From positions 36,865 to 100,864 of the forward strand of contig CAYPIQ010000006.1 of assembly GCA_964410865.1 (NCBI GenBank): 64,000 nucleotides of DNA. The letters run 5' to 3'. Shown here in pieces: positions 34,331 to 60,026 of the stretch. This DNA comes from an uncultured Spirochaetales bacterium (GTDB lineage Bacteria > Spirochaetota > Spirochaetia > JAFGDJ01). Made by a program: the position numbers and the translations under genes. Below the pieces are notes generated by a model. It saw only the letters and a list, made by a program, of their open reading frames with translations, searched no databases and had not been told where the DNA came from. How positions within the stretch are numbered: the first letter of the stretch is position 1; every line of letters starts with the position of its first letter.

Positions 34331-34496
34331 GATTCGCACGGGGGATTCATACCCCGCGGCTTGCTGCTCTCTTTGTAGCCGAGCCGGCTGACTGCCTCGC
34401 CAATGGTTGCGGTACGGGGTATGAATCCCGTATACAATCCATACCTTGCAAAACCGACATACCCCGCCCCTTGGGACGGGGTATGTCGGTTTTTTA
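34331..34496 (+). repeat. Copy A of a roughly 165-nt structured intergenic repeat element
   Basis: It contains the long-range stem 'gggattcataccccg'/'cggggtatgaatccc', a constant core 'gccgagccggctgactgcctcgccaatggttgc' and a 3' hairpin 'cgacataccccgcccc-ttgg-gacggggtatgtcg' followed by TTTTTT. It is near-identical to the copies at 49150 and, in reverse orientation, 58737. Confidence 0.85.
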
Positions 34497-35714
34497 AAAC
34501 CTGTGAATTAATAATCCCGACCTCAGCTTTGGAGCAAACCACGTTGACTTCGGGGGCATCACCATACCGGCATCGGCTACCGCCAGGAGCTCTTCCACAT
34601 CTACCGGGTAGAAGGTGAACGCCACGCCGCCCTCGGTGTCCACGCGTCTGCGTAGTTTATCCGGGCTGCCGATACCACCTTCGAAATCGATCCTCGGGTC
34701 CTTACGTTGATCCGTTATACCCAGTATGGGTTCCAGGAGTTTCTTCTGAAACTTGGAGAGGTCCAGGGCGGCCACCGGATCTCCTCCGGGGGAGGGAACC
34801 CGCTCCTTCAGTTCATACCAGTGTCCGTCAAGGTACATGCAGAAGGCTCCCTTGCCCTCCGGTTCGGTAACTTCGGTTTCCCGCAGCTCGAAGGAATTTG
34901 TTACCGTGCTCAGAAAATCGGCGGTGGAAAGGCCGCCGAGGTCACGGATGTACTTGTTGTACGGATAGATGGCCATCCGGTCCGACGGAAAGGTGACTGT
35001 GAGAAAGTAATTGAACTCGGCATCTGTTTTAGCACCGGTTTCCGATTTCATCATTTCCGCCTTCACTCGGCTTGCTCCCGCCGCCCGGTGATGCCCGTCC
35101 GCGATATAGAGGGCCGGAATATGTTGAAAAGCCCGTTCCATCTCTTCCGACTCTTCGCATTTCCATAGGGTATGACGTATCCCGTCGGTGTCGGTAAAAT
35201 CGTAGAGGCTTTCATGCTGCATTTCATTTTTCAAAAGCCGATCCGTCTCTTCGGAAGCCCGGAAGGTAAGAAGAACAGGGCCTGCGTGAGCCCGGAGGGT
35301 CAGCATATGACGGAGACGGTCGTCTTCCTTCTCCTTTCTCGTGTGTTCGTGTTTTTTGATGGTTCCGTCGTCATATTCATCCACTGCGCAGCAGCCGGCT
35401 ATTCCGACCTGTTCCCTCCCGCCCATAATCAGTCTGTACACGTAGAGGGAAGGTTCTTCATCCTGCACCAGGAATCCCCCCTCGATGAAGCGGCTGAAAT
35501 TTTCCCCTGCCTTTTTGTATACCCCGTCGTCGTAGAGGTCGGTCCCCGGAGGCAGATCTATCTCCGGGCGTACGATATGAAGAAAGCTGTACGGATTGCC
35601 GGCGGCAAGGGCGCGAGCTTCGTCGGTAGTTACCACGTCATAGGGTACACTGGCGAGTCTTTCCGCCAGATCCGCCCTTGGTCTCAGGGCTTTGAAACTT
35701 CGTATGGTTGCCAT
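34494..35714 (-). CDS. DUF1015-family protein
   Basis: The N-terminal 'IRSFKALRPRADLAERLASVPYDVVTTDEARALAAGNPYSFLHIVRPE' is the DUF1015 hallmark; the length is 406 aa and it sits upstream of serA-serC. Confidence 0.75.
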   Translation of the reverse strand: MATIRSFKALRPRADLAERLASVPYDVVTTDEARALAAGNPYSFLHIVRPEIDLPPGTDLYDDGVYKKAGENFSRFIEGGFLVQDEEPSLYVYRLIMGGREQVGIAGCCAVDEYDDGTIKKHEHTRKEKEDDRLRHMLTLRAHAGPVLLTFRASEETDRLLKNEMQHESLYDFTDTDGIRHTLWKCEESEEMERAFQHIPALYIADGHHRAAGASRVKAEMMKSETGAKTDAEFNYFLTVTFPSDRMAIYPYNKYIRDLGGLSTADFLSTVTNSFELRETEVTEPEGKGAFCMYLDGHWYELKERVPSPGGDPVAALDLSKFQKKLLEPILGITDQRKDPRIDFEGGIGSPDKLRRRVDTEGGVAFTFYPVDVEELLAVADAGMVMPPKSTWFAPKLRSGLLIHRF

Positions 35715-35869
35715 AGTACTCCCCTTCCCGTCTCTTTACTCCATGATAGTCCCAGATGCGCAGGAATGTCAAATTAAAATACGCAAATAATAAAATATTT
35801 TTATATTTACTTTGCATTCAGGCAATTTTATATTGCACGATAGCTCCAATTGGGTGTACAATAGGGTGC

Positions 35870-36331
35870 ATGAACGGTGAGCAGTACGAACTGGATGATA
35901 TTGACAGACAAATTCTCCGGGAGCTGCAAAGGGACGGAAGGGCTTCCTTCCGCCTTATTGCCGAGAAACTCGAGATTGCGGACGGTACGGTCCGCGCCCG
36001 GGTGAACAGAATGACCGACCTGGGGATTCTCAAGATTTCCGCCCTTATCAATCCCTTCTACTTCGAGAACAGCATCCTTGCCCATATCGGTATGCAACTG
36101 GAAAGCAGAACCCACCATGAGGCAATGAAAAAGATCGCCGAGCTCGAAGGCGTCTTGTCGGTCTGTAACGCGGCGGGTGAGTACGATCTGGTGGTAGAGG
36201 TGTTTCTCCATTCGAGGGACGAATTGAACCGCTTTCTCTTCGGCAGGTTGCCGAAGATAGATGGGATAAAGAGCACCCACACCTTTGTGTACCTCGATGC
36301 CCGTAATAAATGGATAGAGCCGAAGTTCTGA
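35870..36331 (+). CDS. Lrp/AsnC-family transcriptional regulator
   Basis: HTH 'LQRDGRASFRLIAEKLEIADGTVRARVNRM' plus a RAM domain; the start is the internal ATG at 35870. Confidence 0.85.
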   Translation: MNGEQYELDDIDRQILRELQRDGRASFRLIAEKLEIADGTVRARVNRMTDLGILKISALINPFYFENSILAHIGMQLESRTHHEAMKKIAELEGVLSVCNAAGEYDLVVEVFLHSRDELNRFLFGRLPKIDGIKSTHTFVYLDARNKWIEPKF

Positions 36332-36434
36332 TTACGATCTCATCATGGCATGGATAATCTATAGCCGCAATTGGAATGGAGTCATACCATAATTTTGCCT
36401 TGCAAAAGGTGAATGCCCGGCGTACCATATCGGT

Positions 36435-38153
36435 ATGAGTGAAAGAATACGTGAATTAATTGAAGAGATTTACGGGAAAGAACGGTCCGATGAGGTGTAC
36501 CGGCGGCTCATGGCGGGGATTAAAGAGCGGCTCGAGTCTATCGAACCTCCGGCGGTAAGAGGATCGGGGGATCTACCCTTGAGTGAGGAGGATGCCTTCG
36601 TCATCACCTACGGAGACCAGTTCAGGAAAGATAAGGCCGAGCCTCTGAAGGTCCTGGGCGAATTTGCGGGTCGGTTTCTTCAGGGGATTGTGTCCGGAAT
36701 CCATATCCTTCCGTTCTTTCCATACACCTCCGACGACGGTTTTTCCGTTTCCGATTACCGGCAGGTGAACCCGGCATGGGGCACCTGGGATGATATCCGG
36801 AGAATCGGCACAGAATTCAGATTGATGAGCGACCTGGTTTTGAACCACTGTTCGGTCTCCAACGAGTGGTTTAAGCGGTTTCTGAAAGGTGAAGGCAAGT
36901 ACGCCGATTATTTTATCACCGCGGATAAAGACGAAGACCTCTCCATGGTCGCCCGGCCGCGGGCCCTCCCGCTGCTCACCCCCTTCGAGACCCCCGGGAA
37001 AACCCTGTACGTGTGGACGACCTTCAGCGCGGATCAGGTGGATCTGAATTTCGGTTCTCCGGAGGTATTGATCGAGATGATAGACATATTCCTGTTCCAC
37101 GTCCGGAACGGAATACAGGTTATACGACTTGATGCCATTGCCTATCTATGGAAGGAACCCGGTCATTCCTGCATCCATCATCCGAAAACCCACGCGGTGG
37201 TAAAACTCTTCCGGGCCGTGGTGGACGAGTTTGTTCCCTGGGTGGTTATCATCACGGAAACCAATGTTCCCCACAGAGAAAATGTTTCCTATTTCGGAAA
37301 CGGAACAGATGAAGCCCATATGGTCTATCAGTTTGCCCTGCCGCCCTTGGTGCTGGACGCCTTTTTGAGGGAAGACGCCGGGCACTTGAGGGATTGGGCT
37401 GCAACCCTGCCACCACCCGACGGCCGGACAACGTATTTTAATTTCCTCGCTTCCCACGACGGCGTCGGTCTGCTCCCGGCCCACGGTATCCTGTCCGAAG
37501 AAGAACTGGAAGGGCTCATCAACAGCGTCAGGAACAGGGGAGGGCTTATCTCCTACAAGGCCGGTGCTTCCGGGAATATCCCCTACGAGATGAATATAAA
37601 CTACTGTGATGCCGTGGCCGAAACAACCTTACCCGTGGAAACCCGCGTACGAAAATTCCTCGCCTCCCAGGCCTTTCTGCTCATTATGCCCGGTGTGCCC
37701 GGAATCTACATTCATAGTATCATCGGGTCTGGAAACTGGAGGGAAGGTGTAGAAATAACCGGAATGAACAGGACCATCAATCGTCGGAAGCTCGATCTCG
37801 AAGAAACCTCCGCTGAACTGGAACGCAAAGGCAGCCTTCGAAACCTGGTGTATACGGGGTATGCCGCCATGCTCGAGGTCCGACGGACCCGGAGGGCCTT
37901 CCATCCCGCCGCGTCCTTCAGGATACTGCCGGCTGCAGGTCCGCTGTTTGCGGCGGAACGCGTCTCCCCGGAGGGCTCTGAGCGGCTGGTATGCGTGGTG
38001 AACACCTCCGGCGGCCGGGTGGAATACCCGATGCCGGCAGATTTCAAAGTGACGGCTGTGGCGGATATTCTTACCCTGCGGGAGATCCCACTATCCGCCG
38101 GGGGCACTGTTTCAGTGCCTCCCTACGGTGTACTGTGGCTGGAGGCTTTATAA
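36435..38153 (+). CDS. GH13 subfamily-18 glucoside phosphorylase (sucrose phosphorylase / glucosylglycerate phosphorylase-like)
   Basis: The blocks 'ILPFFPYTSDDGFSVSDYRQVNPAWGTWDD', 'DLVLNH' and 'RLDAIAYLWK' are present; the length is 572 aa. Confidence 0.8.
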   Translation: MSERIRELIEEIYGKERSDEVYRRLMAGIKERLESIEPPAVRGSGDLPLSEEDAFVITYGDQFRKDKAEPLKVLGEFAGRFLQGIVSGIHILPFFPYTSDDGFSVSDYRQVNPAWGTWDDIRRIGTEFRLMSDLVLNHCSVSNEWFKRFLKGEGKYADYFITADKDEDLSMVARPRALPLLTPFETPGKTLYVWTTFSADQVDLNFGSPEVLIEMIDIFLFHVRNGIQVIRLDAIAYLWKEPGHSCIHHPKTHAVVKLFRAVVDEFVPWVVIITETNVPHRENVSYFGNGTDEAHMVYQFALPPLVLDAFLREDAGHLRDWAATLPPPDGRTTYFNFLASHDGVGLLPAHGILSEEELEGLINSVRNRGGLISYKAGASGNIPYEMNINYCDAVAETTLPVETRVRKFLASQAFLLIMPGVPGIYIHSIIGSGNWREGVEITGMNRTINRRKLDLEETSAELERKGSLRNLVYTGYAAMLEVRRTRRAFHPAASFRILPAAGPLFAAERVSPEGSERLVCVVNTSGGRVEYPMPADFKVTAVADILTLREIPLSAGGTVSVPPYGVLWLEAL

Positions 38154-38204
38154 GTATCCTGTGTACGTGGAATAAAATCATTACCGCGTGAAGAGAGATA
38201 TACT

Positions 38205-39479
38205 GTGAACGGAACAGGCAGACAGAGAAACATTGGATTTATATCCACCAGGTTTTCCGGGACCGACGGCGTAACCCTGGAGACAGCCAAATGGGAGCAA
38301 ATCTTTACGGAGTTCGGTCACCGCTGTTTCCGTTTCGCCGGGCTCCTGGACACCGACAACGGCCGATCCATGACGGTACCGGAGGCATTCTTCGGACATC
38401 CGGACAATCTCGCGCTCAATGAGCAGATCTTCGGCAGAAAGGTGAGGAGCCGGGAGGTCACCGACCGAATTTACTCCGTAAAGGAATACCTGAAGGAAAG
38501 GCTTTACGAGTTTATCCGATCCTTCTCGATAGACCTGCTGGTGGCCGAGAACTGCCTGGCTATTCCCATGCATATCCCCCTGGGGATCGCCCTGACGGAA
38601 GTCATCGCGGAAACGGGAATACCCGCCATTGGGCATCACCACGATTTCTGGTGGGAACGCAGTCGGTTTCTTATCAATGCCGTTCCTGAAATTATCGAGC
38701 AGTGCTTTCCACCCCGTCTACCGACCGTCCACCATGTGGTGATTAACTCGATGGTACAGTCCGAACTCGCCTCCCGCCGGGGCATGTCCGCTTCGGTTAT
38801 CTACAATGTCTTCGATTTCGACGCCGGGAAACCGGTACCCCGGGAAACGAACGAAGAATTCCGGAAGGATTTCGGATTCGATCCGGAGGATATCCTGATT
38901 CTACAGCCCACCAGGGTTGTGGCAAGAAAGGGGATCGAGCAGGCATTGCACCTGGTACAACAGTTGAAGCTGCCGAGGGCCAAGCTCCTGATCAGCCACT
39001 CCGTCGGTGACGAAGGCGACGCCTACCTGGACTGGATACTCGATATGGCCCGGCAGCAGCAGATAGACGTACATTTGCTCTACAACCGCCTGGACGAGAC
39101 CCGTCGGGTGGATGATAAGGGAAACCGCCTTTACTCACTCTGGGACGTATACCCCCATGTCGACCTGGTGACCTACCCCAGTCTTTATGAAGGATTCGGC
39201 AATGCCTTCCTGGAGGCGGTCTACTTTCAAAAACCCATCCTGGTAAACCGATACTCCGTCTATATAGTCGATATCGAACCGAGGGGGTTCGAGGTGGTTT
39301 CCATGGACGGATTCCTGACGCCGGATACAATCAACGCCGTTCGAAGAGTTCTGTCGGACCCGGAAAAACAGAGACGGATGACCGAACACAATTTCCAAAT
39401 TGCCCGGCGCTTTTTCTCTTACAGTGTGCTTAGAAAGAGACTCCAGAACATACTCTACGATTTTTTCGGAGGTCCGTAA
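38205..39479 (+). CDS. GT4-family (retaining) glycosyltransferase, uncharacterised subfamily
   Basis: N-terminal 'IGFISTRFSGTDGVTLE' and the C-terminal E-x7-E motif 'YPSLYEGFGNAFLEAVYFQKPILV' are present; the length is 424 aa. It is about 45% identical by eye to the 60814..62115 product. Confidence 0.65.
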   Translation: MNGTGRQRNIGFISTRFSGTDGVTLETAKWEQIFTEFGHRCFRFAGLLDTDNGRSMTVPEAFFGHPDNLALNEQIFGRKVRSREVTDRIYSVKEYLKERLYEFIRSFSIDLLVAENCLAIPMHIPLGIALTEVIAETGIPAIGHHHDFWWERSRFLINAVPEIIEQCFPPRLPTVHHVVINSMVQSELASRRGMSASVIYNVFDFDAGKPVPRETNEEFRKDFGFDPEDILILQPTRVVARKGIEQALHLVQQLKLPRAKLLISHSVGDEGDAYLDWILDMARQQQIDVHLLYNRLDETRRVDDKGNRLYSLWDVYPHVDLVTYPSLYEGFGNAFLEAVYFQKPILVNRYSVYIVDIEPRGFEVVSMDGFLTPDTINAVRRVLSDPEKQRRMTEHNFQIARRFFSYSVLRKRLQNILYDFFGGP

Positions 39480-40330: not shown

Positions 40331-40337
40331 AAACATA

Positions 40338-41672: not shown

Positions 41673-41741
41673 ATATCCCGCAGCCCCTTTTCCCTTTTTA
41701 CCGGGCATCGGTCCAGGTGTTCTATTTTTGTAACGATACCC

Positions 41742-42590: not shown

Positions 42591-42603
42591 GGTTGTAACC
42601 TCC

Positions 42604-44386: not shown

Positions 44387-44419
44387 TTAAACTCAATGAT
44401 GTATACACAATGGAAGTGA

Positions 44420-44885: not shown

Positions 44886-45344
44886 ATGCCGAGACCGCAG
44901 AAAGAAAGGATTGTAAGCAGACCACCTCTGTATTCGTCTTTCAAGCCCACCGGGGTGAGAAAAAACGAGCTAGGGCAAATTTCGCTTACCCTTGATGAAT
45001 ATGAAGCCATTCGTCTTGCGGATTATCTCCAGTTGGAGCACGAAGAGGCTTCTATTGAAATGGATATATCCCGCTCGACCTTTACAAGGCTTTTAGAAAG
45101 GGCGAGACAAAAGGTATCTGCGTTTATTATCGAAGGGAAGGAACTAAGTATCGAAGGCGGCCGCGTTCATTTCCGGGCAAATATCATGCGGTGTGCAGGG
45201 TGCGGGAATATATTCAGTGCCGGTTTCGAGCGTAATGTTACATCATGTCCGGCCTGCGGATCCCGGGATCTTGTAGATATGGCCGGTGGATACGGTCACG
45301 GAAGGTGTTGTCTTCAATTCAATATATCAAAGGAGAACAAATAG
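44886..45344 (+). CDS. DUF134 (UPF0251) predicted DNA-binding protein with a C-terminal CxxC...CxxC zinc ribbon
   Basis: 'MPRPQKERIV...FKPTGV...LTLDEYEAIRLADYLQLEHEEASIEMDISRSTFTRLLERARQKV' is the DUF134 hallmark, followed by 'CAGCGNIFSAGFERNVTSCPACG'. Confidence 0.8.
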   Translation: MPRPQKERIVSRPPLYSSFKPTGVRKNELGQISLTLDEYEAIRLADYLQLEHEEASIEMDISRSTFTRLLERARQKVSAFIIEGKELSIEGGRVHFRANIMRCAGCGNIFSAGFERNVTSCPACGSRDLVDMAGGYGHGRCCLQFNISKENK

Positions 45345-45346
45345 AT

Positions 45347-45607
45347 ATGCCCAGAGGAGACGGAACAGGGCCTGCGGGACAGGGACCCGGAACAGGGAAA
45401 GGATTGGGAAGAAAACCCGGAGGCGGAGGCCGGGGACGTCATAGCGGAGGTGCTTTTGGTCCCGGCGGAATGTGTATATGCGCGAAATGCGGGACTAAAA
45501 TTCCTCATCAACAGGGAACATCATGTACGGAACTAAAGTGTCCGAATTGCGGGCAAACCATGATTCGCGAAGAGTTGCTCGAAGAAAAAAGAAAGAGAAA
45601 AGAATGA
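45347..45607 (+). CDS. DUF5320-family small glycine-rich protein
   Basis: 'MPRGDGTGPAGQGPGTGKGLG...GGMCICAKCG...CPNCG' followed by a coiled-coil tail matches DUF5320; the ATG at 45347 follows RBS 'aaaggag', and the ORF-track 5' extension is rejected. Confidence 0.75.
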   Translation: MPRGDGTGPAGQGPGTGKGLGRKPGGGGRGRHSGGAFGPGGMCICAKCGTKIPHQQGTSCTELKCPNCGQTMIREELLEEKRKRKE

Positions 45608-46473
45608 AAATCGCCATTGCCAGCGGGAAGGGTGGTACAGGAAAAACCACCCTTTCGGTAAACCTGGCGGCGTATCTCGCGGAGACCCGGCCGGTTATAT
45701 TAACCGATCTCGATGTGGAGGAGCCGAACTCGGGACTTTTTCTCAAAAAGGGGAGAGCTGAATTCCGAAAAGATGTATTCAGGATGGTCCCGTCATGGAA
45801 ACAGTCATCCTGTACCCTCTGCGGATTATGCCAGGAGGTGTGTAACTTCAATTCGATAATAAAAATGGGGGACGAGGTAATGATATTCCCCGAACTCTGC
45901 CATGGATGTTACGCCTGCAGCGAGCTCTGTCCGACGGATTCACTCCCCATGGTTCCGGAAAAAATCGGTGAATTGGCGAGTTATACGGCAGGCGATATTT
46001 CTTTTATCGACAGCCGACTCGATATCGGGCAGGAACAGGCGGTACCGCTGATTGCCGAGACACTCTCCTACGTGGAAGATGAATTCCCCCGGGATGTCCT
46101 TAAAATATATGACGCTCCGCCGGGTACGTCCTGCCCTGTTATAGAAGCGGTAAAGGACGCGGATTTTATTCTGCTTGTAACCGAGCCAACCCCCTTCGGG
46201 CTTCACGATCTCCGGCTTGCCCTCGAGACGGTCAGGAGCCTGGGAAAAAGATGCGCGGTTGTGGTCAACAGGTACGGTCTCGGGAATGCCGATGTCGATG
46301 AATACTGCCGGCGGGAAGGTATCGACATCGTGGCGAAGCTGCCGAACAGGCGGCAGGTGGCGGAGCTTTATTCCCGGGGAAGGCTTGTCTACCCGGAGGT
46401 GCCGGAGATTGCCGCGGAGCTGGAAAATTTAGCTGCGTATATCGACGGGCTGGAAAAGGAGATGCGGGGATGA
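45604..46473 (+). CDS. MinD/ParA-superfamily P-loop ATPase with an inserted 2x[4Fe-4S] ferredoxin domain (COG1149-like), copy 1
   Basis: The deviant Walker A 'ASGKGGTGKTT' and the ferredoxin insert 'CTLCGLCQEVCNFNSI...CHGCYACSELCPTDS' are present; the start overlaps the upstream stop (ATGA). Confidence 0.85.
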   Translation: MKIAIASGKGGTGKTTLSVNLAAYLAETRPVILTDLDVEEPNSGLFLKKGRAEFRKDVFRMVPSWKQSSCTLCGLCQEVCNFNSIIKMGDEVMIFPELCHGCYACSELCPTDSLPMVPEKIGELASYTAGDISFIDSRLDIGQEQAVPLIAETLSYVEDEFPRDVLKIYDAPPGTSCPVIEAVKDADFILLVTEPTPFGLHDLRLALETVRSLGKRCAVVVNRYGLGNADVDEYCRREGIDIVAKLPNRRQVAELYSRGRLVYPEVPEIAAELENLAAYIDGLEKEMRG

Positions 46474-47357
46474 AAGAGATTGTCGTGATTTCCGGCAAAG
46501 GCGGAACCGGCAAAACCTCGGTGACGGCTTCTTTTTCAGTACTCGCAGGCCCCGAGGTGATAACCGCTGATTGTGATGTGGATGCGGCGGATATGCATCT
46601 GCTTTTACAGCCGGATTTCGCCGAAGCCCATGATTTCTTCAGCGGCCTGAAAGCCCGTATCGATGCTTTACAGTGTTCGGGCTGCGGGAGGTGTGCGGAG
46701 GTCTGTCGTTTCGGAGCCGTGGACCTAGTCGATGATGTGTATTCAGTCGTTTCCCTGGATTGTGAAGGCTGCGGATACTGCGCCCGGATCTGTCCGGAGA
46801 AGGCTATAGTTATGGAAGAGCAGAACGTCGGAGAGTGGTATCGGTCGTCCATTAAAACCGCCGGTATAATGATCCACGCTCGTCTCGGCATAGGCGCGGA
46901 CAATTCCGGAAAACTTGTAGCCAAGGTGAAAAACGAGGCAAAACGGGTAGCGGAAGAAACAGGTAAGAATATCGTCCTTGTAGACGGATCGCCGGGTATC
47001 GGATGCCCGGTGGTCTCCTCTCTTTCGGGGGCCGATTTTGTTGTATTTGTTACTGAACCGACGGTATCCGGTCTCCATGATGTTAAACGGGTTCATGAGG
47101 TGGTAAAGAACTTCGATATCCCTTCGGGATGCATCATAAATAAAGCCGATTTGAATCCGGAGATAACAGGGCAGTTGAAGGATTTTTTTGCCGAAGAAGG
47201 CATTGTCCATCTTGCCGACCTCCCCTATGACGAAAGCTTTACGGAAGCGATGGTCATGGGCCAAACGATTGTGGAATTCGCCGGCGGCAGACTCACCTCG
47301 GAGATCTCCGCATGCTGGCAGCGTATAAAAACTATAGTTCATACAAAAGGAGAATGA
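46470..47357 (+). CDS. MinD/ParA-superfamily P-loop ATPase with an inserted 2x[4Fe-4S] ferredoxin domain, copy 2
   Basis: 'ISGKGGTGKTS' with the insert 'CSGCGRCAEVCRFGAV...CEGCGYCARICPEKA'; the start overlaps the upstream stop (ATGA). Confidence 0.85.
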   Translation: MKEIVVISGKGGTGKTSVTASFSVLAGPEVITADCDVDAADMHLLLQPDFAEAHDFFSGLKARIDALQCSGCGRCAEVCRFGAVDLVDDVYSVVSLDCEGCGYCARICPEKAIVMEEQNVGEWYRSSIKTAGIMIHARLGIGADNSGKLVAKVKNEAKRVAEETGKNIVLVDGSPGIGCPVVSSLSGADFVVFVTEPTVSGLHDVKRVHEVVKNFDIPSGCIINKADLNPEITGQLKDFFAEEGIVHLADLPYDESFTEAMVMGQTIVEFAGGRLTSEISACWQRIKTIVHTKGE

Positions 47358-47360
47358 TAT

Positions 47361-47699
47361 ATGAGGATTGCTTTCACCAGTAAAGGCGCCGGGCCGGATT
47401 CAGCGATAGATCCGCGGTTCGGAAGAACGGAGTATATTCTACTCTACGATGAAGAGAAGGACGAGTATACTCCTGTGGATAACCGGGCGATAGGCGGGGT
47501 CGCCCACGGGGCCGGGCCTCAGACAGCCCAAAAATTGTTTGACCTCCAGCCGGATGTACTCATTACCGGCAATGGACCGGGGGGGAATGCAGCCGCCGCT
47601 CTGCAAAAGGCAAACCTGGATATATATACCGGAGCCGGGCAGATGACCGTTAAACAAGCCTATGATGCATATAAAAAAGGTGAACTGAAAAAGTTTTAG
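47361..47699 (+). CDS. NifX/NafY-type FeMo-cofactor-biosynthesis-domain protein, copy 2
   Basis: 'MRIAFTSKGAGPDSAIDPRFGRTEYILLYDEEKDEYTPVDNRA...LQPDVLITGNGPGGNA' matches the NifX-family pattern; it is 112 aa and starts 3 nt after the upstream stop. Confidence 0.75.
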   Translation: MRIAFTSKGAGPDSAIDPRFGRTEYILLYDEEKDEYTPVDNRAIGGVAHGAGPQTAQKLFDLQPDVLITGNGPGGNAAAALQKANLDIYTGAGQMTVKQAYDAYKKGELKKF

Positions 47700-47775
47700 T
47701 AGTTTCGTTAGACACGCCGGCGGCTTGACCGGCTGCCGGTATGTCGTTCCAGCGGTTGTAGAAGAGGAGGCTCCT

Positions 47776-48723
47776 GTGTATTCATATTTATTCGGTCCGG
47801 TCCCTTCCCGGCGCCTAGGCATGTCCCTCGGCGTTGATCTGGTTCCACACAAGGTATGCACCTTCAACTGTGTATACTGCGAGTGCGGCAGGACAACCCA
47901 TTTGACCAGGCAACGGGATGAATACGTTCCGGTTAATGCCGTGATGGAAGAATTGGGGCGGTTTTTTATCGATAATCCGAAACCGGATTATGTCACTTTT
48001 TCAGGAGCCGGTGAACCAACATTGAACTCCGGGATCGGTACGGTGCTCGACTTTATCAAAACCGAACACGAGGGTATGCCCGTGGCGGTGCTTACCAATG
48101 GAAGTCTGCTCTCGGATCCGGAAGTGCGGTCGGAGATCCTGGCTGCCGATGTTGTTCTGCCATCGCTGGATGCGGCTTCGGAGTCGACCTTCCGCAGGCT
48201 GGACAGACCAGTCCACAGTATCGTTCTGTCTGAGTACATTCAAGGCCTTGTTGATTTCAGGGAGGAATACGCGGGCAGAATATGGCTCGAGGTAATGATG
48301 CTGCCGGGTTATAACGACAACCCGGATGATCTCAGGTTACTGAAGGAAGCGTTTTTGAGAATACGGCCCGATCTTATACAGCTCAATACCCTTGACAGAC
48401 CCGGCACGGTGAAGGACCTCCGGCCTGCGTCACGGGAGGACCTGGAACGGATTATCGATACCTGGGCATTGGACAATGTAGAGATCATCGCCGCGGCGCC
48501 GGAACGAAAGAATATTCAGTCATACAGAAAAGATACGGAGACGGCGATCCTCGAGACCATTGCCAGGCGGCCCTGCACTCTCGAGGACCTCGGCAGTATT
48601 CTCGGCACCCATATTAACGAAGTCAATAAGTATCTCGGTGTTCTCGAGGAAGAAGGGAAAATAGAGACCCTGCGTCAGGAAAGAGGTGTGTTTTACCAGC
48701 TGAAAAAAAACCACCGGGCGTGA
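47776..48723 (+). CDS. Radical SAM protein with a C-terminal winged-helix-like tail
   Basis: The N-terminal 'YLFGPVPSRRLGMSLGVDL' is followed by 'CTFNCVYCECG' (CxxxCxxC); the GTG start at 47776 sits 6 nt after 'GAGGAGG', and the ORF-track 5' extension is rejected. Confidence 0.7.
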   Translation: MYSYLFGPVPSRRLGMSLGVDLVPHKVCTFNCVYCECGRTTHLTRQRDEYVPVNAVMEELGRFFIDNPKPDYVTFSGAGEPTLNSGIGTVLDFIKTEHEGMPVAVLTNGSLLSDPEVRSEILAADVVLPSLDAASESTFRRLDRPVHSIVLSEYIQGLVDFREEYAGRIWLEVMMLPGYNDNPDDLRLLKEAFLRIRPDLIQLNTLDRPGTVKDLRPASREDLERIIDTWALDNVEIIAAAPERKNIQSYRKDTETAILETIARRPCTLEDLGSILGTHINEVNKYLGVLEEEGKIETLRQERGVFYQLKKNHRA

Positions 48724-48761
48724 TGCACCGGCGGTTCCATCCAGGGGGGAATTTTTTCCGG

Positions 48762-49136
48762 TTAATGGTGGCCGTGGTCCCGTCCCGTTCCGTCACCCTT
48801 CCCCTCTCCGCGGACACAGGTGCTTTCTCCTGATTCCAAGGAGCCGTTGATATAGTCCTTTATTACCTGTTCTACGTCACCCTGCACGCCGGAAATACAT
48901 TCCATATTGTACTGCTGAAAGAAACCCTGGGCTCTCCGGCCCATCCCGCCGGTAATAATAACATTACAGCCGTTATTATGAAGAAACTCTGGGATAGCGC
49001 CGGGAGCGTGGCCGGGATTCGCCAGGATGTTTTTATTCGCCACGGTTGACCCTTCTATATCGAAGACCGTATATTCCGAACATCGTCCGAAATGCTCCGC
49101 TACACTGCCGTTTTCCGTTGCTATGGCAATTTTCAT
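48762..49136 (-). CDS. NifX/NafY-type FeMo-cofactor-biosynthesis-domain protein, copy 3 (convergent)
   Basis: 'MKIAIATENGSVAEHFGRCSEYTVFDIEG...GCNVIITGGMG' matches the NifX-family pattern; the start CAT at 49134-49136 has RBS GGAG, and the ORF-track N-terminal extension is a translation of repeat copy B. Confidence 0.75.
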   Translation of the reverse strand: MKIAIATENGSVAEHFGRCSEYTVFDIEGSTVANKNILANPGHAPGAIPEFLHNNGCNVIITGGMGRRAQGFFQQYNMECISGVQGDVEQVIKDYINGSLESGESTCVRGEGKGDGTGRDHGHH

Positions 49137-49149
49137 TTTCTTCTCCTGT

Positions 49150-49323
49150 ATGTACATATGATTCGCACGCGGGATCCATACCCCGCGGCTTGCCGCGCTC
49201 TTCGGAACCGAGCCGGCTGACTGCCTCGCCAATGGTTGCTGTACGGGGTATGAATCCCGCATACAATCCATACCTTGCAGAACCAACATACCCCCGCCCC
49301 TTGGCGCCGGGGTATGTTGATTA
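49150..49323 (+). repeat. Copy B of the roughly 165-nt structured repeat element
   Basis: It is near-identical to copy A with scattered substitutions and one indel. Confidence 0.85.
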
Positions 49324-49337: not shown

Positions 49338-50306
49338 TTACTTTAATTCGTCCTGCCGGGCAAGAATTGTCTGTAACCAGGTTATAAATTTTCCAACGAA
49401 GGACCACTGTATACGTTCTCTTGTTGTATGAACATCGAAAAGATTCGGGCCCATGGATACGGCTTCGATTCCGCCGGCTTTCGCGGAAAGAATACCGCAC
49501 TCCAGGCCTGCATGAACGGTTACAATTTCTACCGGTTCAGTAAAGATGCCCTCTCTGCAGCTCCGGCAGAGTGATACGAGGCGGGACCCAGGGGCGGGGG
49601 GCCAGGGAGGGTAGGTGGTTGTGTTGGAGACGTGCAGACCCGCGCGCCCGATGAGTTCCTTGATGTTCCTTTCGCCCTCGTCGAGTTCTTCCTGTTGATC
49701 CGAACGGAGGCTTATTTCCAGGTGGGTATTGTTCAGACCGTCGACCCTCAGGACACCGGGGTTGGCCGAGGTACTTACCTGGCCGCCCATCTCTTCATTT
49801 CTCCTCAGGACACCGGCCGGCAGATTCAGGATGAGGTCCGGCAGGGTTTTGAGGCCCTGGTCTGTAAGGGCTCCGACCCTGGCGGTATCTGTTTTTGTGA
49901 GTGATATCCGGGGGGTTGAATCGGGATTGGAATAGATATCGTTGAACTCTTTTTCGAAACGCCGGTAGAGTGGTAAGAGGAGCTTTTCCCCCTCCTCCGG
50001 TATAAAGAAGGTGACGGTGCAGTTGGTCGGGATTGCATTTATCTTTCCTTCGCCCTTAATATCGGTAACCGCAGGTTTCAAGTCGGAAAGACCGGAAAGA
50101 AAAGAAGCAAAGCGACGGTACAGATTCTCAGGACTTGTCCCGATATCCATGCCGGAATGGCCGCCTTTGAGCCCGTCGGCGGTTATATAGTCTCCCTCCC
50201 GCAAGGGGATGACGGGGTCTTTAGTAAAATCATGGGAAGAACCGGTATCTTTAACGCACACCATGTCCAGGTGTCCCTGAAGGATAACGGCGGGGGCATC
50301 TTCCAT
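49338..50306 (-). pseudogene. pepD: Aminoacyl-histidine dipeptidase (PepD, M20 family) remnant lacking the N-terminus and with a large internal deletion
   Basis: 'ILQGHLDMV...HDFTKDPV' and the C-terminal 'HAGLECGIL...SMGP...HTTRERI' match PepD, but roughly 130 aa between 'KDPV...' and 'LKGGHSG' are missing and the N-terminal roughly 70 aa are absent. Confidence 0.6.
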
Positions 50307-50575
50307 TCCCGCAGAGGGCGGGGAGGACCTTCATTTTATCCAGTTGCCGTTGGGCAGCCAGATCCCGAAGAAGATCGTCGTGGACCACCGAGTCCTTAGA
50401 TGGAGTAGAGGGTTATATCATCCTAGATGACGAGAAAACCCCCCGGCGTTACCTCGGGTGTCGTTTACATTCACTTCTCCCCGGCCGAACCAGTACTGCA
50501 TATTATATTGTAAACCGCGTCATGTAATTCTGCCATATCAGCGGGGTAGGACTGCGAGGGGCTTTTTTATTCACC

Positions 50576-50900
50576 CTAGTAGAACGAACGGCCTACACCG
50601 GCATGTATATTAACGATGTCTTCCATGAGGTTGTAAATGAAGGCACCGGAACCCATGGCGAGCCAGTTCTTGTAGTATCCACCAATTCTTAATACAGGGT
50701 GAATACCGCTGCTGCCGTAGAAAACGCCGACTTCCAGTGATACGGCCAGGTCGTCCACCTTGTTGCCCTAGACACCTTTTACGGCGGCATCCAGTACGGC
50801 ATCCGTTGCCGTCATGGGATAATGGACCCATTCCTCGGAGGCCGGGTCATGGGCGGTGCGGTGAAGGGCACCGAATGCTCGACGGTAAGAGTATACTTGC
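50576..50900 (-). pseudogene. Gene remnant with an in-frame amber stop (possible beta-barrel OMP C-terminus)
   Basis: The minus-strand frame reads '...EEWVHYPMTATDAVLDAAVKGV*GNKVDDLAVSLEVGVFYGSS...HAGVGRSFY', with TAG at about 50766-50768; no intact gene model is possible. Confidence 0.3.
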
Positions 50901-51172
50901 CGGTGGGGAGGGTCGTCGGTTCTACTGAGTTACATATAATTCGCCGGTTTCTTCCGCAGCCTCCCCAGCCACGTATTTCATACCGGCAAGGCTGTAAGCG
51001 GCACGGTATGCCGCATCCTGCGTATCATCGACGAACTCGATGACGACGGTTTCCGCGGCTTTGGTTGTACCTGTTAATACGTCGATCATCCTGATAAACA
51101 GATTCATTTTCTCCCCCAGGCCGGAGAGTTCGCCGACCAGGGTGGTACCGGCGGCCGGGAGTTTTTTTATTT

Positions 51173-51345
51173 AGTTGCTCATGCCGCCGCGCGGCAACCG
51201 AAAGGATGAAAACAGGCGGGTATAGCAATTCCGGTGTGGCTATTTTCGTAATAGTTGCTCATGCCGCTGCGCGGCAACCGAAAGGATGAAAACAGCCGGG
51301 TGCGGCTATTCCGGTGCGGCTATTTTTGTATTAGTTGGCACAGCT
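51173..51345. repeat. Tandem direct repeat, roughly 78 bp x 2.2, each unit carrying a GC hairpin (gttgc...gccgccgcgcggc...aac)
   Basis: 'agttgctcatgccgccgcgcggcaaccgaaaggatgaaaacaggcgggtatagcaattccggtgtggctattttcgta' is followed by a near-identical second unit and a partial third. Confidence 0.8.
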
Positions 51346-51477
51346 TTCGTCCGTACAGCCGGACAGTGAAAAAGCCTGGGCGGAAGGAATTTCTTCGACG
51401 TACGCTGTAAAAGAAACATGCCCTCGAAGTGCGTCTTCGAGGACATGTTGAATCAGGTTTCCCGTAGCCACTTTCAT

Positions 51478-51912
51478 CTAGTCCACGGTTGATGTAACGT
51501 TAACCCCTTTCAGGGTATCCGATACGGGGCACCGCTCTTCGATCATTTTTACCAATTTTTGGATATTTTCCTTCGGGGACGGTGAATCGATATGCATGTT
51601 GTAACGAATTTCCTGATATCCCTTTCTTACTGAAGGGTCCTTTCCCAGAAATCCGTCCGTGTCAAGATCACCCTCTATATCTACCGAGTATCCTTTGAGC
51701 TCTACTCCGCATTGGCCTGCGAACGCGGCTGCACAGATACCCATACATCCTCCCAGGGATGAAAGGAGCATCTCCACCGGACTCATAGCCTTGTTCGAGC
51801 CCCCGAGGTTTTTCGGTTCATCCATGGCCACCTCGAAACTCCGTGCGTTGCTTTCTACATACACTCCGTTCCCCGACCATGTTGTTGTTGCTTTAAAGGT
51901 TTGTATCGCCAT
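51478..51912 (-). CDS. OsmC/Ohr-family peroxiredoxin-like protein
   Basis: A 144-aa protein with OsmC blocks 'MSPVEMLLSSLGGCMGI' and 'ERCPVSDTLKG' carrying the two conserved Cys. Confidence 0.85.
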   Translation of the reverse strand: MAIQTFKATTTWSGNGVYVESNARSFEVAMDEPKNLGGSNKAMSPVEMLLSSLGGCMGICAAAFAGQCGVELKGYSVDIEGDLDTDGFLGKDPSVRKGYQEIRYNMHIDSPSPKENIQKLVKMIEERCPVSDTLKGVNVTSTVD

Positions 51913-56237: not shown

Positions 56238-57092
56238 CTAGGGCTTTAGTTCGATCTCTTCGTCTATTAATGAACAGGTGTCTTCATCACAGGCTATGAG
56301 AGAAAGGGAGCAGGTTACAACGGGGGCTTGTGCAGCCTCCCCGGAAAGGAGGAATTCCATTGTCATGGTCTGCCCCTCCTGGATGCCATGAAAGGAATAC
56401 TCCTCCGGTTCAACGGTCAGACTGCTGCCGGCGTTGATTGTAACGGTCAGGGGGGGGTATCCGGGTCCGTTCAGATGAAAACCCTCCTTCGGCGCCAGCC
56501 CTAGGGTAATAACCGATCCGCCGTAGACATGGTCGGCAAAGGTATACACCAGGGTATATCGTGGTTGTTCGATAACCGAATCGATCTGTTCCATGGTATC
56601 GTCGGCGGAAGCCAAATGATATTCTAACCGTTCAGCGAAAAAATCGTAGTCTCGTTTACCTTCTATTTTCTCTACCACCACTCCGTCCTTAATAATAAAG
56701 GTGGTCGGATATCCGATGATCTTTTCATTGTTGAAAAAGGCTTCCGCGCCGTACAGGATGGGGTAAGTGACTCCCAGGGATGCGGCGATTTTTTCCACCA
56801 GATCCTTCTTATCCTCCGGATCCGTATTTACACCAAGGATCAGTACATCCCTGTCCCGGTAGGTGTCGTACAGCCTCGACAGGTCAATCATTTCTTTTTT
56901 ACAGGGCGCGCAAAAACTCGCCCAGTAGTTGAGTACAACAAGATCGTACGAACCGGTGCTGTAGTAGTCTGAAACGTGCTTACCTGTGTAGTTCTCCATG
57001 GTGACAGGTGTTGTCTCCGGGTTGTTTTCAGATCGGCCTGAACAACCGAACAACAGTATACCGGCGGCAATAAGAAGAGTGAGTCTTTTCAT
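56238..57092 (-). CDS. Lipoprotein fusing a TlpA/ResA-like thioredoxin domain to a DsbD-N-terminal (nDsbD)-like domain
   Basis: The lipobox 'LLFGCSG' is followed by the thioredoxin 'WASFCAPCKKE' (CxxC) and a C-terminal region with the Cys pair 'TCSLSLIACDEDTC'. The start CAT at 57090-57092 has RBS AGGAAG and overlaps the upstream gene stop (ATGA). Confidence 0.65.
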   Translation of the reverse strand: MKRLTLLIAAGILLFGCSGRSENNPETTPVTMENYTGKHVSDYYSTGSYDLVVLNYWASFCAPCKKEMIDLSRLYDTYRDRDVLILGVNTDPEDKKDLVEKIAASLGVTYPILYGAEAFFNNEKIIGYPTTFIIKDGVVVEKIEGKRDYDFFAERLEYHLASADDTMEQIDSVIEQPRYTLVYTFADHVYGGSVITLGLAPKEGFHLNGPGYPPLTVTINAGSSLTVEPEEYSFHGIQEGQTMTMEFLLSGEAAQAPVVTCSLSLIACDEDTCSLIDEEIELKP

Positions 57093-58033
57093 GGTGATTT
57101 CTTCCTGGTCTTTATTGTTTTTATCTGTACTGTTTCCCTTCCGGAAAAGGTGATGCAGTGTACCGGGCAGACCCGGACACAATCGAGGCACCGGATGCAC
57201 TCTCTGCTGTTCGGTGTGCTCCGGACCGGAATATTCATGGGGCAGACTTCTTCGCATTTTCCGCACTGGATGCACTTTCCCGTATCCACCGAGATCTGCA
57301 GAAAACTGAGCTTATTGAACAGGCCCCAGTAAGCCCCCAGGGGACACATGATTTTGCAGAAGGACCTGCGTGAAAACAGGAAACTGATGAGAAATACTAC
57401 TAAAATAGATATTTTTAATACGGTAAGCCCCGACGCGGCCTGCCTCAGACCCTCATCCACCGCCAGCAGGGGAATACCGGCGGTGAGTGTACCCGCAGGG
57501 CATATCCATTTACAGAACCAGGGTCCAATATATCGTATATCGGTAATAAACAAAGGCAGAACTATGACGAACAGTACGAGGACCGGGTATTTTACATATG
57601 TGAGGATGCGGGGGAGGGGAATGTTTTTCGAGGTAATTCTGTTGATGAGATCCTGGATAAAACCGAAAGGGCAGACCCATCCGCAGAAAAATCTGCCCGT
57701 GGTAATACCTATCAGGGTGAGAAACCCGATGATATAAAAACCGGCATAGTTTAATCGTTCTTTCAGGCGAATCCGTTCGTTTACGTCGTTCAGCCAGAAT
57801 TGTAGTGAACCCAGGGGACATGAAAGCACAGACATGGGACATGAATAGCAGTGAAGCCCCGGAAGACAGAACTGTTTCGATGAAAACTGGCTTATAAGGG
57901 CTTTGTTCCGACGTATGGATTCCAGGAAAGTTGCAATATCCAGGTTGATGAGGGCGAAAGAAGCCGCCTGAATGAGTAATCTGAAGCGAATCAGCTTGTT
58001 TCTGAATGGAGTTTTCATCCTAGGCCTATACAT
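57089..58033 (-). CDS. NapH/MauN-like integral-membrane ferredoxin (two CX3CP motifs plus two [4Fe-4S] motifs)
   Basis: 'FFCGWVCPFG' and 'FCKWICPAG' are CX3CP motifs, and 'CIQCGKCEEVCP' and 'CIRCLDCVRVCP' are 4Fe-4S motifs; four transmembrane helices are visible. Confidence 0.7.
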   Translation of the reverse strand: MYRPRMKTPFRNKLIRFRLLIQAASFALINLDIATFLESIRRNKALISQFSSKQFCLPGLHCYSCPMSVLSCPLGSLQFWLNDVNERIRLKERLNYAGFYIIGFLTLIGITTGRFFCGWVCPFGFIQDLINRITSKNIPLPRILTYVKYPVLVLFVIVLPLFITDIRYIGPWFCKWICPAGTLTAGIPLLAVDEGLRQAASGLTVLKISILVVFLISFLFSRRSFCKIMCPLGAYWGLFNKLSFLQISVDTGKCIQCGKCEEVCPMNIPVRSTPNSRECIRCLDCVRVCPVHCITFSGRETVQIKTIKTRKKSP

Positions 58034-58211
58034 TCGTAACAGAGGTTAATGGCTTTCCGCAGGATTCCTTCTACCAGGTCTCCCTGCCAAAGACCGAAAA
58101 CCAGCAGTAGAATCGAGACAATGAAAATACCGTACCGTAATATATTCTTCATCCCGGTTAAATTACCATATAACTTTTTCTTTATACAAGAGAAAAACAG
58201 TTCTGTTTGCC

Positions 58212-58736
58212 CTACATAACTTCCAGGGTGCCCGTCTTCTTTGCTCTTACCTCGAACCGTCGGAAGAGAGAATAGCCCATGAGAAGGTAGAGGGTCCCGA
58301 CCAGGAGTTCTTTGAGCGGTAGAATGCCGACCTGTCCGGATGCGGCGCCTTCGGATATTATAAGCCGGGCTGCGGCGATGCCGTGGGAGAGGGGAAGAAA
58401 GGAGGATGCATCCCTGATCCATCCGGGTAGATCGCTCAGGGGCACATTAGCCCCGGAGAAGAGCAGGAGGAGAAAATATACAGTATTGTTTACGAACATC
58501 ACGTTGCGGGTTATCAGGCCGATGCAACCCATCAACAGCCCCAGCCCGGAGGTGCTGAAAACCGAAACCAGAACAGCCAGGGACAGCATTCCCAGCCGGT
58601 CCGAGGGTATATGCAGGCCGAAAAGGATAATGCCCCAGGTAAAGGCAATGGCCACCCCCATCATCTTGAACGCGAGATCCGTGGAAGGTCGAAACCGGCG
58701 GAACAGCGCGCGGTTATCAAAAAAATCGAGAAAATC
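58212..58736 (-). pseudogene. C-terminal portion of an ABC-2-type permease whose 5' end is replaced by repeat element copy C
   Basis: Four transmembrane helices ('MMGVAIAFTWGIILFGL...', 'LSLAVLVSVFSTSGLGLLMG') match the C-terminal half of ABC-2 permeases; the ORF-track N-terminus 'MQNQHTPPLGAGYV' is a translation of the repeat. Confidence 0.5.
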
Positions 58737-58893
58737 AACATACCCTGCCCCAAGGGGCGGGGTATGTTGGTTCTGCAAGGTATGGATTTTATGCGGGATT
58801 CATACCCCGTACCGTAACGGTTGTCGAGGCAGTTAGCCGGCTCGGCTCCGAAGAGCGCGGCAAGCCGCGGGGTATGAATCCCGCGTGCGAATC
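58737..58893 (-). repeat. Copy C of the roughly 165-nt structured repeat element (reverse orientation)
   Basis: It is the reverse complement of copies A and B: 'aacataccctgccccaaggggcggggtatgttgg...ccggctcggctcc...ccgcggggtatgaatcccgcgtgcgaatc'. Confidence 0.85.
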
Positions 58894-59001
58894 ATCCACC
58901 GGGTCGGGAGAGAGTGGTTTAATTGTAACGGTCATATTAACCTTCCGCCCTATAGAATTATTCCCCCCGGGTCCGTTGGATGGACCCGGGAGGTAGGCCC
59001 T

Positions 59002-59880
59002 TCAACCGCGGGAGTTCATCCGCTCGAAGACCTTATAGAGGCTGTGGGTTCCCATGTTCTCCAGACCTTCGGCCATGGCGGCGATGTAGAACTGCTGGGC
59101 CATGGCAAGGCCGGGAAGGGAGAGGTTCATTCGTCCGGCTTCCTTCAGCGCTATCCCCATATCTTTGACGAAGTGTTTAACAAAAAAGCCGGGATCGAAA
59201 TTTCCCTTTGCTATACGAGGTCCGTAATTCGAGAGGGACCAGGTACCGGCGGCACCTTTTTCTATTACCGAGATTACCTCCATCATGTCGAGTCCGGCCC
59301 GGTGGGCGTACAGAAGACATTCAACCAGCCCTATCATGGTTGTGGCTATATGGATCTGGTTTACCGCCTTGGTGTGCTGCCCAGCTCCGGCGCCACCGAG
59401 TAAGGAGATGTTCTTACCCATAATCTGGAAAAAAGGAAGTACTTCATCGAAGACTTCCCGGTCTCCCCCGACCATGATCGCCAACCGTGCTTCCTTTGCG
59501 CCCACGTCGCCGCCGGAAACCGGAGCGTCGAGAACGGGTACACCCTTTTCTTTCCCCGCCGCATAAATCTCCTCAGCCATGCTCGGTTCCGAGGTGGTCA
59601 TATCGACAAGAATAGTGCCGCTCTTTGCACCGGCTACCAGGCCGTCTTCGCCGAGAAAGACCTCCCGGACATCCTGTGGATATCCTACAATGGCAAAGGC
59701 TATATCACTGTTTTCCGCCACCGCCTTGGGGCTGTCACACCACCGGGCGCCGGCATCGAGAAGTTCCTCCGCCTTTGATCTGGTTCGAGTATACACGCTC
59801 ATGGGGTAGCCTGCGGCGATGATATGACCGCACATCGATTTTCCCATGACTCCTGTTCCTACCCATCCTATCTTCTTCAA
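59002..59880 (-). CDS. NAD(P)-dependent beta-hydroxyacid dehydrogenase (3-hydroxyisobutyrate dehydrogenase / tartronate semialdehyde reductase family)
   Basis: The N-terminal Rossmann 'IGWVGTGVMGKSM' and family-typical core are present; the length is 292 aa. Confidence 0.85.
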   Translation of the reverse strand: MKKIGWVGTGVMGKSMCGHIIAAGYPMSVYTRTRSKAEELLDAGARWCDSPKAVAENSDIAFAIVGYPQDVREVFLGEDGLVAGAKSGTILVDMTTSEPSMAEEIYAAGKEKGVPVLDAPVSGGDVGAKEARLAIMVGGDREVFDEVLPFFQIMGKNISLLGGAGAGQHTKAVNQIHIATTMIGLVECLLYAHRAGLDMMEVISVIEKGAAGTWSLSNYGPRIAKGNFDPGFFVKHFVKDMGIALKEAGRMNLSLPGLAMAQQFYIAAMAEGLENMGTHSLYKVFERMNSRG

Positions 59881-59977
59881 TGTTTTCTCCTTATATAAAC
59901 GAGTGTTAATTACAGTGTAGCACTTCAGCTTGCATCATGAAAGGCTCTTAACGAGGTTTTCTTTTCTATTCAACTTT

Positions 59978-60026
59978 ATTCGCACGGGGGATTCATGCCC
60001 CGCCCCTTGTGGCGGGATATGTTGGT
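59978..60026 (+). repeat. Copy D: internally deleted mini version of the repeat element
   Basis: In 'attcgcacgggggattcatgccccgccccttgtggcgggatatgttgg' the 5' end of the element joins directly to the 3' hairpin. Confidence 0.7.

Follow-up and report, generated by a model that had tools for sequence, protein, structure and literature searches.

A dispersed ~160-nt structured repeat of uncultured Treponema-like spirochaetes, probably a non-autonomous mobile DNA element

What kind of element is the structured repeat of about 160 nt that recurs between the genes of a 64-kb stretch of DNA (the window) from an uncultured Spirochaetales bacterium (contig CAYPIQ010000006.1), and how did its copies come to lie where they are? 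An earlier reading of the letters, here called the original prediction, described three full copies and one mini copy and offered two explanations: a mobile element of the REP type or a MITE (a miniature transposable element with inverted repeats), or a family of small RNAs. The analysis described here indicates that the repeat is probably a small, non-coding, non-autonomous mobile DNA element of ~160 nt, present in low copy number in an uncultured Treponema-like Spirochaetota clade and mobilised in trans. Its insertion, its dispersal to unrelated sites and orientations, the coexistence of sub-lineages and the decay to a mini form are shown by the sequences, and these observations are presented first.

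All four copies that had been proposed are present essentially where they had been placed, with their boundaries refined (c1 to c4, Table 1), and they pass a chance control. Three diagnostic motifs were counted four to seven times in the window, against 0-0.44 times in dinucleotide shuffles, and none of 100 shuffles gave counts as high; all window matches of these motifs are confined to the known copies. The same repeat family was recovered by an unbiased repeat search of the window. When a covariance model trained on seven full copies was run on the window and on ~69 kb of related loci, it detected no extra copy. The full copies measure 160-164 nt. They had been called near-identical, but the pairwise identity of c1, c2 and c3 is actually 88-90%. 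The proposal that indels break the reading frame is borne out by the insertion of 2 nt in c2, so the full copies have no reading frame in common; indels disrupt every frame of the element, which has no coding frame. The broader idea of a non-coding repeat family acting at the level of DNA or RNA is supported.

The option of a REP- or MITE-like element is directly supported by a comparison of filled and empty sites at c1. In the window, the gene order is AsnC, DUF1015, c1, serA and serC. The order AsnC, DUF1015, serA and serC is kept in three other loci, L008 (serA 79% identical), L011 and L012 (63%), in which the spacer between DUF1015 and serA measures 14-19 nt, compared with 176 nt in the window. 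The extra sequence of the window is exactly the element, lying between TAA and AGGAGG and antisense to the operon (junctions in Table 1). Since near and far relatives alike have the short spacer, the ancestral junction was short and c1 was inserted into it. No target duplication was found at c1 when the filled site was compared with the empty sites. The copy is a clean case of a structured insertion between a stop codon and a ribosome-binding site in an amino-acid biosynthesis operon.

The mini copy c4 can be explained by a simple deletion. A 9-mer, CATACCCCG, has two direct occurrences in the element, one in the left arm of the long-range stem P1 and one in the 5' side of the 3' hairpin, and removal of the sequence between both 9-mers yields the mini form. 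When c4 is compared with the product predicted in this way from c1, 46 of the 52 positions match without gaps, which fits the proposal that the mini copy is an internally deleted derivative. An independent mini copy with the same junction (L005) is present in another genome. Long palindromes that lie between short direct repeats are well known to be unstable and prone to deletion between these repeats, and the long palindrome of this element decays recurrently to a mini form of ~50 nt via its 9-nt direct repeats. In addition, c1 and c4 have two private variants in common (position 11 of the element is a G, and the 3' end reads GTYGGT), indicating that at least two sub-lineages have inserted in this genome. 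The shared 3' variant also indicates that the 3' YGRT is part of the element and not a target duplication. YGAT as a target-site duplication was therefore dropped, as the 3' GGT variant is common to c1 and c4 at different loci.

All copies are intergenic and located at gene ends, at unrelated loci and in both orientations. Related copies have been found in at least seven other assemblies, and every named one is a Spirochaetes or Treponema metagenome-assembled genome (MAG). When 185,579 species genomes were scanned for the 5' motif, six loci were obtained (L001 to L006). In one of these, L002 from Sulfuritalea, the similarity is limited to the 25-nt pattern and the covariance model does not detect the locus, which was therefore treated as a chance match. 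The genes next to the copies elsewhere are housekeeping genes unrelated to each other: frr-uppS, PIN, DUF434, nitroreductase and a TPR gene. When four translated frames of the element were searched against 5.8 billion proteins, only four spurious open reading frames (ORFs) that translate it were detected in public protein sets (P0001, P0002, P0123 and P0124, from additional assemblies), of which P0002 and P0123 represent one locus of two diverged genomes. An exhaustive search of representative proteins added only P0125 and P0126, which are SdrD-like repeat adhesins of great length that matched the translated element with E ~1e-16. They were rejected as relatives, as a short 'DAGFIPKTAGLG' stretch is repeated 8-12 times in them and the match is a chance artefact of repeat summing, a pitfall to bear in mind whenever non-coding DNA is translated for a search. 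The nearest named relative by serA is Gracilinema caldarium (63%).

Comparisons with existing collections gave no relatives. In Rfam 15, neither the window nor six loci gave any match at the gathering score. A search of c1 at E<=10 yielded only generic hairpin matches, with at most 35 bits against thresholds of 40-135 bits. The Rfam comparison that the original prediction had called for thus yields no known family that explains the element. No match was observed in IMG/VR or in phage and plasmid collections. A blastn search (word size 11) of 5,426 Escherichia coli genomes was also negative, which leaves no sequence similarity to the enterobacterial ERIC consensus. A full-text literature search for the motif yielded no paper.

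The element is built of four parts (Table 1): a 5' module, the long-range stem P1, of which the tip is variable, then a linker and finally the 3' hairpin. The long-range stem that had been proposed (GGGATTCATACCCCG / CGGGGTATGAATCCC) is real, and on either strand the copies fold far better than shuffled sequences, with folding energies of -75 to -91 kcal/mol and z-scores between -4.8 and -8.3. For the AATC(C) of the linker, the 5' GATT is a possible pairing partner, as is an upstream GGATT in c3, L003 and L007. The element ends in TGATTCGCACG at the 5' side and in GTYGAT(T) at the 3' side, and these two sequences do not form an inverted repeat with one another. The inverted repeat of the element lies internally (alignment columns 10-25 and 87-102), with ~60 nt past it. 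A terminator-like 3' hairpin with a U-tract had been described for each copy. The hairpin itself is present in all copies (-17 to -39 kcal/mol), but among the window copies a clear U-run follows it only in c1 and c3; elsewhere it is weak in L003 and L007 and absent, as it also is in c2, from L001, L004 and L005.

Table 1. Copies and modules of the repeat, the c1 insertion junctions, related copies in other genomes and the adjoining permease remnant. Window coordinates count from the first letter of the window.
Feature	Position	Strand	Sequence, size or score	Remarks
c1, full copy	34330-34493	+	176 bits (covariance model)	Gap between DUF1015 stop (TAA, 34494-34496, minus strand) and serA Shine-Dalgarno; antisense to both flanking minus-strand genes
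c2, full copy	49159-49322	+	172.5 bits (covariance model)	2-nt insertion within the 3' hairpin; antisense to flanking minus-strand genes
c3, full copy	58731-58894	-	182.5 bits (covariance model)	Sense to both neighbours
c4, mini copy	59977-60027	+	51 nt	5' module fused to 3' hairpin at the CATACCCCG direct repeat; antisense to flanking minus-strand genes
5' module		element orientation	(T)GATTCGCAC	Invariant
P1			GCGGGATTCATACCCC / GGGGTATGAATCCCGC	Perfect long-range stem of 16 bp
P1 left arm in c1	34340-34355	+		Sequence-invariant across the family
P1 right arm in c1	34416-34431	+		Followed by the conserved linker ATACAATCCATACCTTGCAAAAC
Tip			~55 nt	Variable; 5-bp hairpin P2 with CUUG loop and small hairpin with UUCG loop
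Linker			25 nt, ATACAATCCATACCTTGCAGAAC	Conserved
3' hairpin			CAAC-ATACCCCG...CGGGGTAT-GTTG	Followed by AT and 0-4 T
3' hairpin in c1	34450-34493	+	-35.5 and -38.8 kcal/mol	A-run/T-run extension; terminator-like on both strands
DUF1015-serA junction, L008			TAAcaAGGAGaatcgacATG	
DUF1015-serA junction, window			TAA + ~163 nt element + AGGAGGaacgagtATG	
ABC-2 permease C-terminal remnant	58212-58680	-	Pfam match limited to profile positions 103-209 of 211	Shown as context; lies outside the element
L001				Spirochaetes MAG OH_SDB_12; sense to both neighbours
L004				Spirochaetes MAG OH_SDB_12; frr-uppS spacer, sense to both neighbours
L003				Uncultured Treponema MAG; sense, after a gene; opposite neighbour convergent
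L006				Same uncultured Treponema MAG; at contig end, inside a copy
L005			Mini form	Another Spirochaetes MAG; sense, after a gene; opposite neighbour convergent
L007			One further full copy	JGI metagenome, scan with independent mid motif; sense, after a gene; opposite neighbour convergent

The modules are conserved to very different degrees. Across seven copies from five assemblies, on which the conservation and pairing statistics are based, pairwise identity is 87-100% in the 5' module and 88-98% in the mid module (right arm and linker), compared with 52-89% in the tip and 50-89% in the 3' hairpin. The same modular split is observed between L001 and L004, which belong to one MAG and are 72% alike overall. 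The alignment also allowed the covariation of the proposed stems to be evaluated. Overall, 93% of the cells are paired, versus 32-44% when the partners are slid, and the covariation score is 0.146 versus 0.084 in shuffles (0 of 500 as high). Covariation is present in the 3' hairpin, with compensatory changes in five of 13 pairs, and in P2, with one such change, but not in P1, in which 13 of the 16 pairs never vary and compensatory changes are zero. The invariant modules together with the covarying hairpin indicate that the sequence itself is under constraint in ~70 nt, but only the shape in the 3' hairpin. Mismatches are balanced between G-U (10) and A-C (8), and this balance gives no sign of one RNA strand being selected.

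For a mobile DNA element, this pattern would describe a substrate. The mover would be an enzyme encoded elsewhere in the genome, which may recognise three parts by sequence (the linker, the 5' module TGATTCGCACGCGGGATTCATACCCCG and the inverted partner of this module) and the 3' hairpin by shape alone. The most likely specific guess would be a single-strand 'peel-and-paste' movement of the IS200/IS605 type, because the ends are not inverted repeats, no duplication is present, CATACCCCG precedes the hairpins near both ends and YGAT occurs at both boundaries. Effects on the host are by-products in this reading. The element puts a strong bidirectional hairpin between genes, provides the upstream gene with its TGA stop codon in two genomes and possibly uppS with a start codon in one, and stands at a gene-truncation breakpoint in the window.

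Several observations weigh against mobile DNA. No transposase, integrase or reverse transcriptase was found in a Pfam survey of ~45 window ORFs, nor did a composite parent element come to light. Transposition is usually marked by terminal inverted repeats and a target-site duplication, and both are absent. The comparison of filled and empty sites relies on one site and on species that are 21-37% diverged in the serA protein, leaving boundaries and target uncertain by a few bases. The loops on the element strand (CUUG, UUCG and CUUG) are, in our reading, typical stable RNA tetraloops. Lastly, the near-invariance of ~70 nt while the rest differs by ~50% could also mean functional selection on each copy.

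Nested within the mobile-DNA reading is a more specific one, in which the repeat is a non-autonomous IS200/IS605 derivative, a palindrome-associated transposable element (PATE), that would be moved as single-stranded DNA by a Y1 (HUH) transposase, be inserted 3' of YGAT and have its end hairpins bound. We hold this tentatively and with low confidence. The element resembles IS200/IS605-derived PATEs and MITEs, such as Nezha of cyanobacteria, in lacking both terminal inverted repeats and target duplication, in its size (130-170 nt for these elements) and in having hairpins at both ends, which lie on the same strand, are each preceded by CATACCCCG and, in L003 and L007, both contain a GCTTGC loop region. 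However, the left and right hairpins differ in geometry and are not equivalent, and a long invariant P1 is atypical. To our knowledge, nothing like the 16-bp P1 or the conserved linker has been described for IS200/IS605 ends (IS608 and ISDra2), which counts against this assignment. A possible fixed tetranucleotide at the left junction may be another likeness, as YGAT stands before TCGCACG in nine of ten copies and YGAT or YGGT at the element end, but on the present sequences YGAT is not separable from the element itself. If YGAT were the target, the predicted empty site of c1 would read TAA-AAAAATCA-GGAGG, which is a natural A-rich spacer like that of L011. Against the IS200/IS605 assignment are also the orientation of the window copies, which is 3:1 and not uniform, and the 64 kb itself, in which neither tnpA nor any other linked Y1 transposase was seen.

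A dispersed family of functional structured RNAs is rather unlikely. Here, the copies would be genes for trans-acting small RNAs or cis-acting modules of 3' or 5' untranslated regions, the 3' hairpin would be the terminator, and the modules would be selected in each copy. The folds are strong and compensatory changes are present in the 3' hairpin and P2, but the largest helix is without any covariation and the G-U and A-C mismatches are balanced. The repeat resembles a transcript in that it runs from a fixed 5' base to a hairpin that is often followed by Ts, but the U-run is missing from four copies (c2, L001, L004 and L005). A promoter scan found no promoter in place, and the upstream flanks diverge immediately, indicating that there is no shared promoter; in c1 and c2, a promoter on the element strand would even fall inside the coding start of serA and of the NifX-like gene, respectively. 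The single-stranded linker and the 5' module are conserved even between the 72%-identical copies of one MAG, the loops on the element strand are similar to CUUG/UUCG tetraloops, and an orthologous copy has been retained in two diverged genomes (P0002 and P0123), all of which would suit a functional RNA, while the lack of an Rfam match and the occurrence of copies both sense and antisense to operons would not. The small-RNA-gene option of the original prediction consequently finds no backing in either a shared upstream sequence or promoter or a strand bias between G-U and A-C.

A stricter form of this idea, which we consider improbable, is a structured small RNA of ~160 nt that would combine a long stem, hairpins with CUUG and UUCG tetraloops, the conserved single-stranded linker and its own terminator, the gene copies of which would conceivably have been dispersed via an RNA intermediate and the modules of which would be selected at every locus. 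An RNA intermediate is conceivable in view of the inserted unit, which starts at a fixed 5' base and finishes in a hairpin and a T-run that varies in length. If the repeat were an RNA with its own function or mode of spread, the element would be more interesting. Other candidates related to RNA or to retroelements were rejected. A bridge RNA of the IS110 type does not fit, as the second hairpin is without an internal loop and no recombinase is nearby. For a tRNA-like reading of GGGGTATGAATCCCG-CATACAA-T-CCA, no gene was called by ARAGORN. The template and variable repeats of a diversity-generating retroelement were dropped, as the copies lie between genes and their differences show no preference for adenines. 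An outward promoter in the element for serA was not accepted, as no convincing -35/-10 is present.

It is very improbable that the copies are immobile themselves and represent single ends, or scars of attachment sites, left by a larger element (an insertion sequence, integron cassette site, prophage or integrative island), as could be suggested by the several truncated genes beside copies at 49-60 kb and by the hairpin base AACCAAC...GTTGATT, which in our reading is one mismatch per side from the attC core RYYYAAC...GTTRRRY, because the unit is always complete, with both ends in every full copy at a constant spacing of ~160 nt, and c1 is a clean insertion of one unit in an operon junction; the copies are moreover dispersed among housekeeping genes without arrays, there is no phage, viral or plasmid match, and the hairpin is without extrahelical bases and shorter than described attC sites. 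An integron attC site as such was rejected, as AACCAAC and GTTGATT are each one base off, the hairpin is (nearly) perfect and the copies are scattered.

How does a mobile element of this form relate to known repeat systems? Spirochaete genomes have generally been reported to be rich in MITEs (PMC11602168). In the definition of a MITE (PMC3184786), the element is short, non-coding and mobile, the last of these being based on the empty and filled sites and on the unrelated contexts, but it has neither the terminal inverted repeats nor the target-site duplication of classical MITEs, and membership of that class was rejected. ERIC, Correia, RUP and SPRITE are all similar to it in being small, structured, intergenic and co-transcribed and in having deleted variants (PMC3184786). 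ERIC (~127 bp) is a non-coding imperfect palindrome of low to moderate copy number that is found in short intergenic spacers, often within operons and in either orientation. It also has internally deleted short variants, can alter the fate of mRNA and is mobilised by an enzyme that is not known (PMC3184786). However, ERIC has terminal inverted repeats and TA target duplications (PMC3184786), and this element has neither; it also has additional sequence beyond the palindrome, namely a conserved linker and a ~60-nt 3' hairpin, and the host clade is different. The Correia or NEMIS elements of Neisseria (~104-157 bp) are similar in size, in the joint occurrence of full-length and internally deleted forms, in insertion beside genes and in forming a long hairpin in transcripts (PMC3184786). 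Correia elements have terminal inverted repeats of 26 bp, a TA duplication, an IHF site and outward promoters, whereas this element has neither inverted repeats at its termini nor a visible duplication nor a predicted promoter.

Terminator-like dispersed repeats share a 3' part that resembles an intrinsic terminator and a location downstream of genes (PMC3184786), but they are unrelated in sequence and host, and in this element the U-run is inconsistent and a long conserved palindrome precedes the hairpin. The REP/BIME/REPIN sequences with RAYT are also extragenic palindromes at the 3' ends of genes that are mobilised in trans. REPs measure 20-40 nt and occur in hundreds of copies, whereas this element is a unit of ~160 nt with distinct modules and has only four copies in 64 kb, and membership of the REP/BIME group was rejected for this reason. 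The element is a new example of the broad kind of small non-autonomous structured intergenic repeats and stands outside any named family, because two classical MITE features fail and no sequence relative is present in the libraries searched.

The original prediction also made several claims about the neighbouring genes. Every copy was said to lie directly 5' of a minus-strand gene. This is correct in the window but does not hold as a rule, since each copy lies equally 3' of such a gene; all neighbours in the window are on the minus strand, and the apparent rule is a by-product of the local gene orientation. In other genomes, copies are located downstream of genes or between convergent genes. 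The N-terminal ORF extensions that had been called spurious are indeed artefacts of the ORF listing. For serA, the start is at 34317, and an identical protein of 404 aa (P0003) is on record. The Nitro_FeMo-Co (NifX-like) gene next to c2 probably starts at 49136, judging from an ATG preceded by AGGAG and a Pfam domain that begins at residue 60 of the long ORF. The copy c2 lies between this start and the stop of a truncated M20-peptidase ORF (49338) and is antisense to both. The copy c3 lies 108 nt downstream of the stop of a dehydrogenase gene (59002), in the same sense, and adjoins the ABC-2 permease remnant, of which the listed ORF start falls inside c3.

It had been proposed that one copy replaced the 5' end of this ABC-2 gene. 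The permease is truncated at the element, as its match is limited to a part of the profile (Table 1), but the role of the element as the cause goes beyond this; the truncation may have been caused by the element, for example through recombination between two copies. The M20-peptidase-like ORF (49338-50306) has only the dimerisation domain, starts near the conserved HLDMV motif and looks N-terminally truncated. Together, the truncated M20 ORF and the ABC-2 remnant suggest that genes around the repeats are decaying in the zone of 49-60 kb.

In some genomes, the element overlaps the signals of its neighbours. The upstream stop codon is the TGA of the TGATTCG with which the element begins, both in L003 (PIN gene, 3058-3060) and in L005 (DUF434/DUF5616 gene, 3878-3880). 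In L004 (3943-4793), the uppS frame is without ATG, GTG or TTG from the element end to the HVGIIMDGNGRWA motif, and the first in-frame start of uppS is the ATG of GGGGTATGAATCC in the right arm of the element, with GAGG before it. From this arrangement, the element may supply a start codon and an N-terminal extension of 27 residues to the essential gene uppS.

The element opens no long-standing question, and its importance is modest, concerning mainly the annotation of MAGs and the search for an enzyme. It creates false N-terminal extensions and small false ORFs in spirochaete MAGs, with four such ORFs already public, and assemblies break at it, as in L006, which ends in a copy. Masking with the covariance model would improve gene calls. 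In addition, the invariant arms and the 3' hairpin defined only by shape provide a defined substrate for finding the mobilising enzyme, which would be of interest if it lies outside the known transposase families.

A few minor observations concern other parts of the window. The 'nif' genes at 44886-49136 comprise DUF134, two MinD/ParA-type 4Fe-4S ATPase genes, two small Nitro_FeMo-Co (NifX/NifB-like) genes and a radical SAM gene, and no nitrogenase structural gene is present among the ORFs scanned. Downstream of an OsmC-like gene, two tandem units of 80 nt (51172-51331) are 89% identical and have no Rfam match; they are contained in a 1.1-kb stretch without long ORFs (50306-51478). A perfect tandem repeat of 2 x 43 nt (60071-60156) lies 45 nt from c4, in a 400-nt spacer upstream of the dehydrogenase gene. 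Two group-1 glycosyltransferase genes, at 38205-39479 (+) and 60814-62115 (-), are inverted paralogues with 71% identity over 168 nt and 77% over 61 nt.

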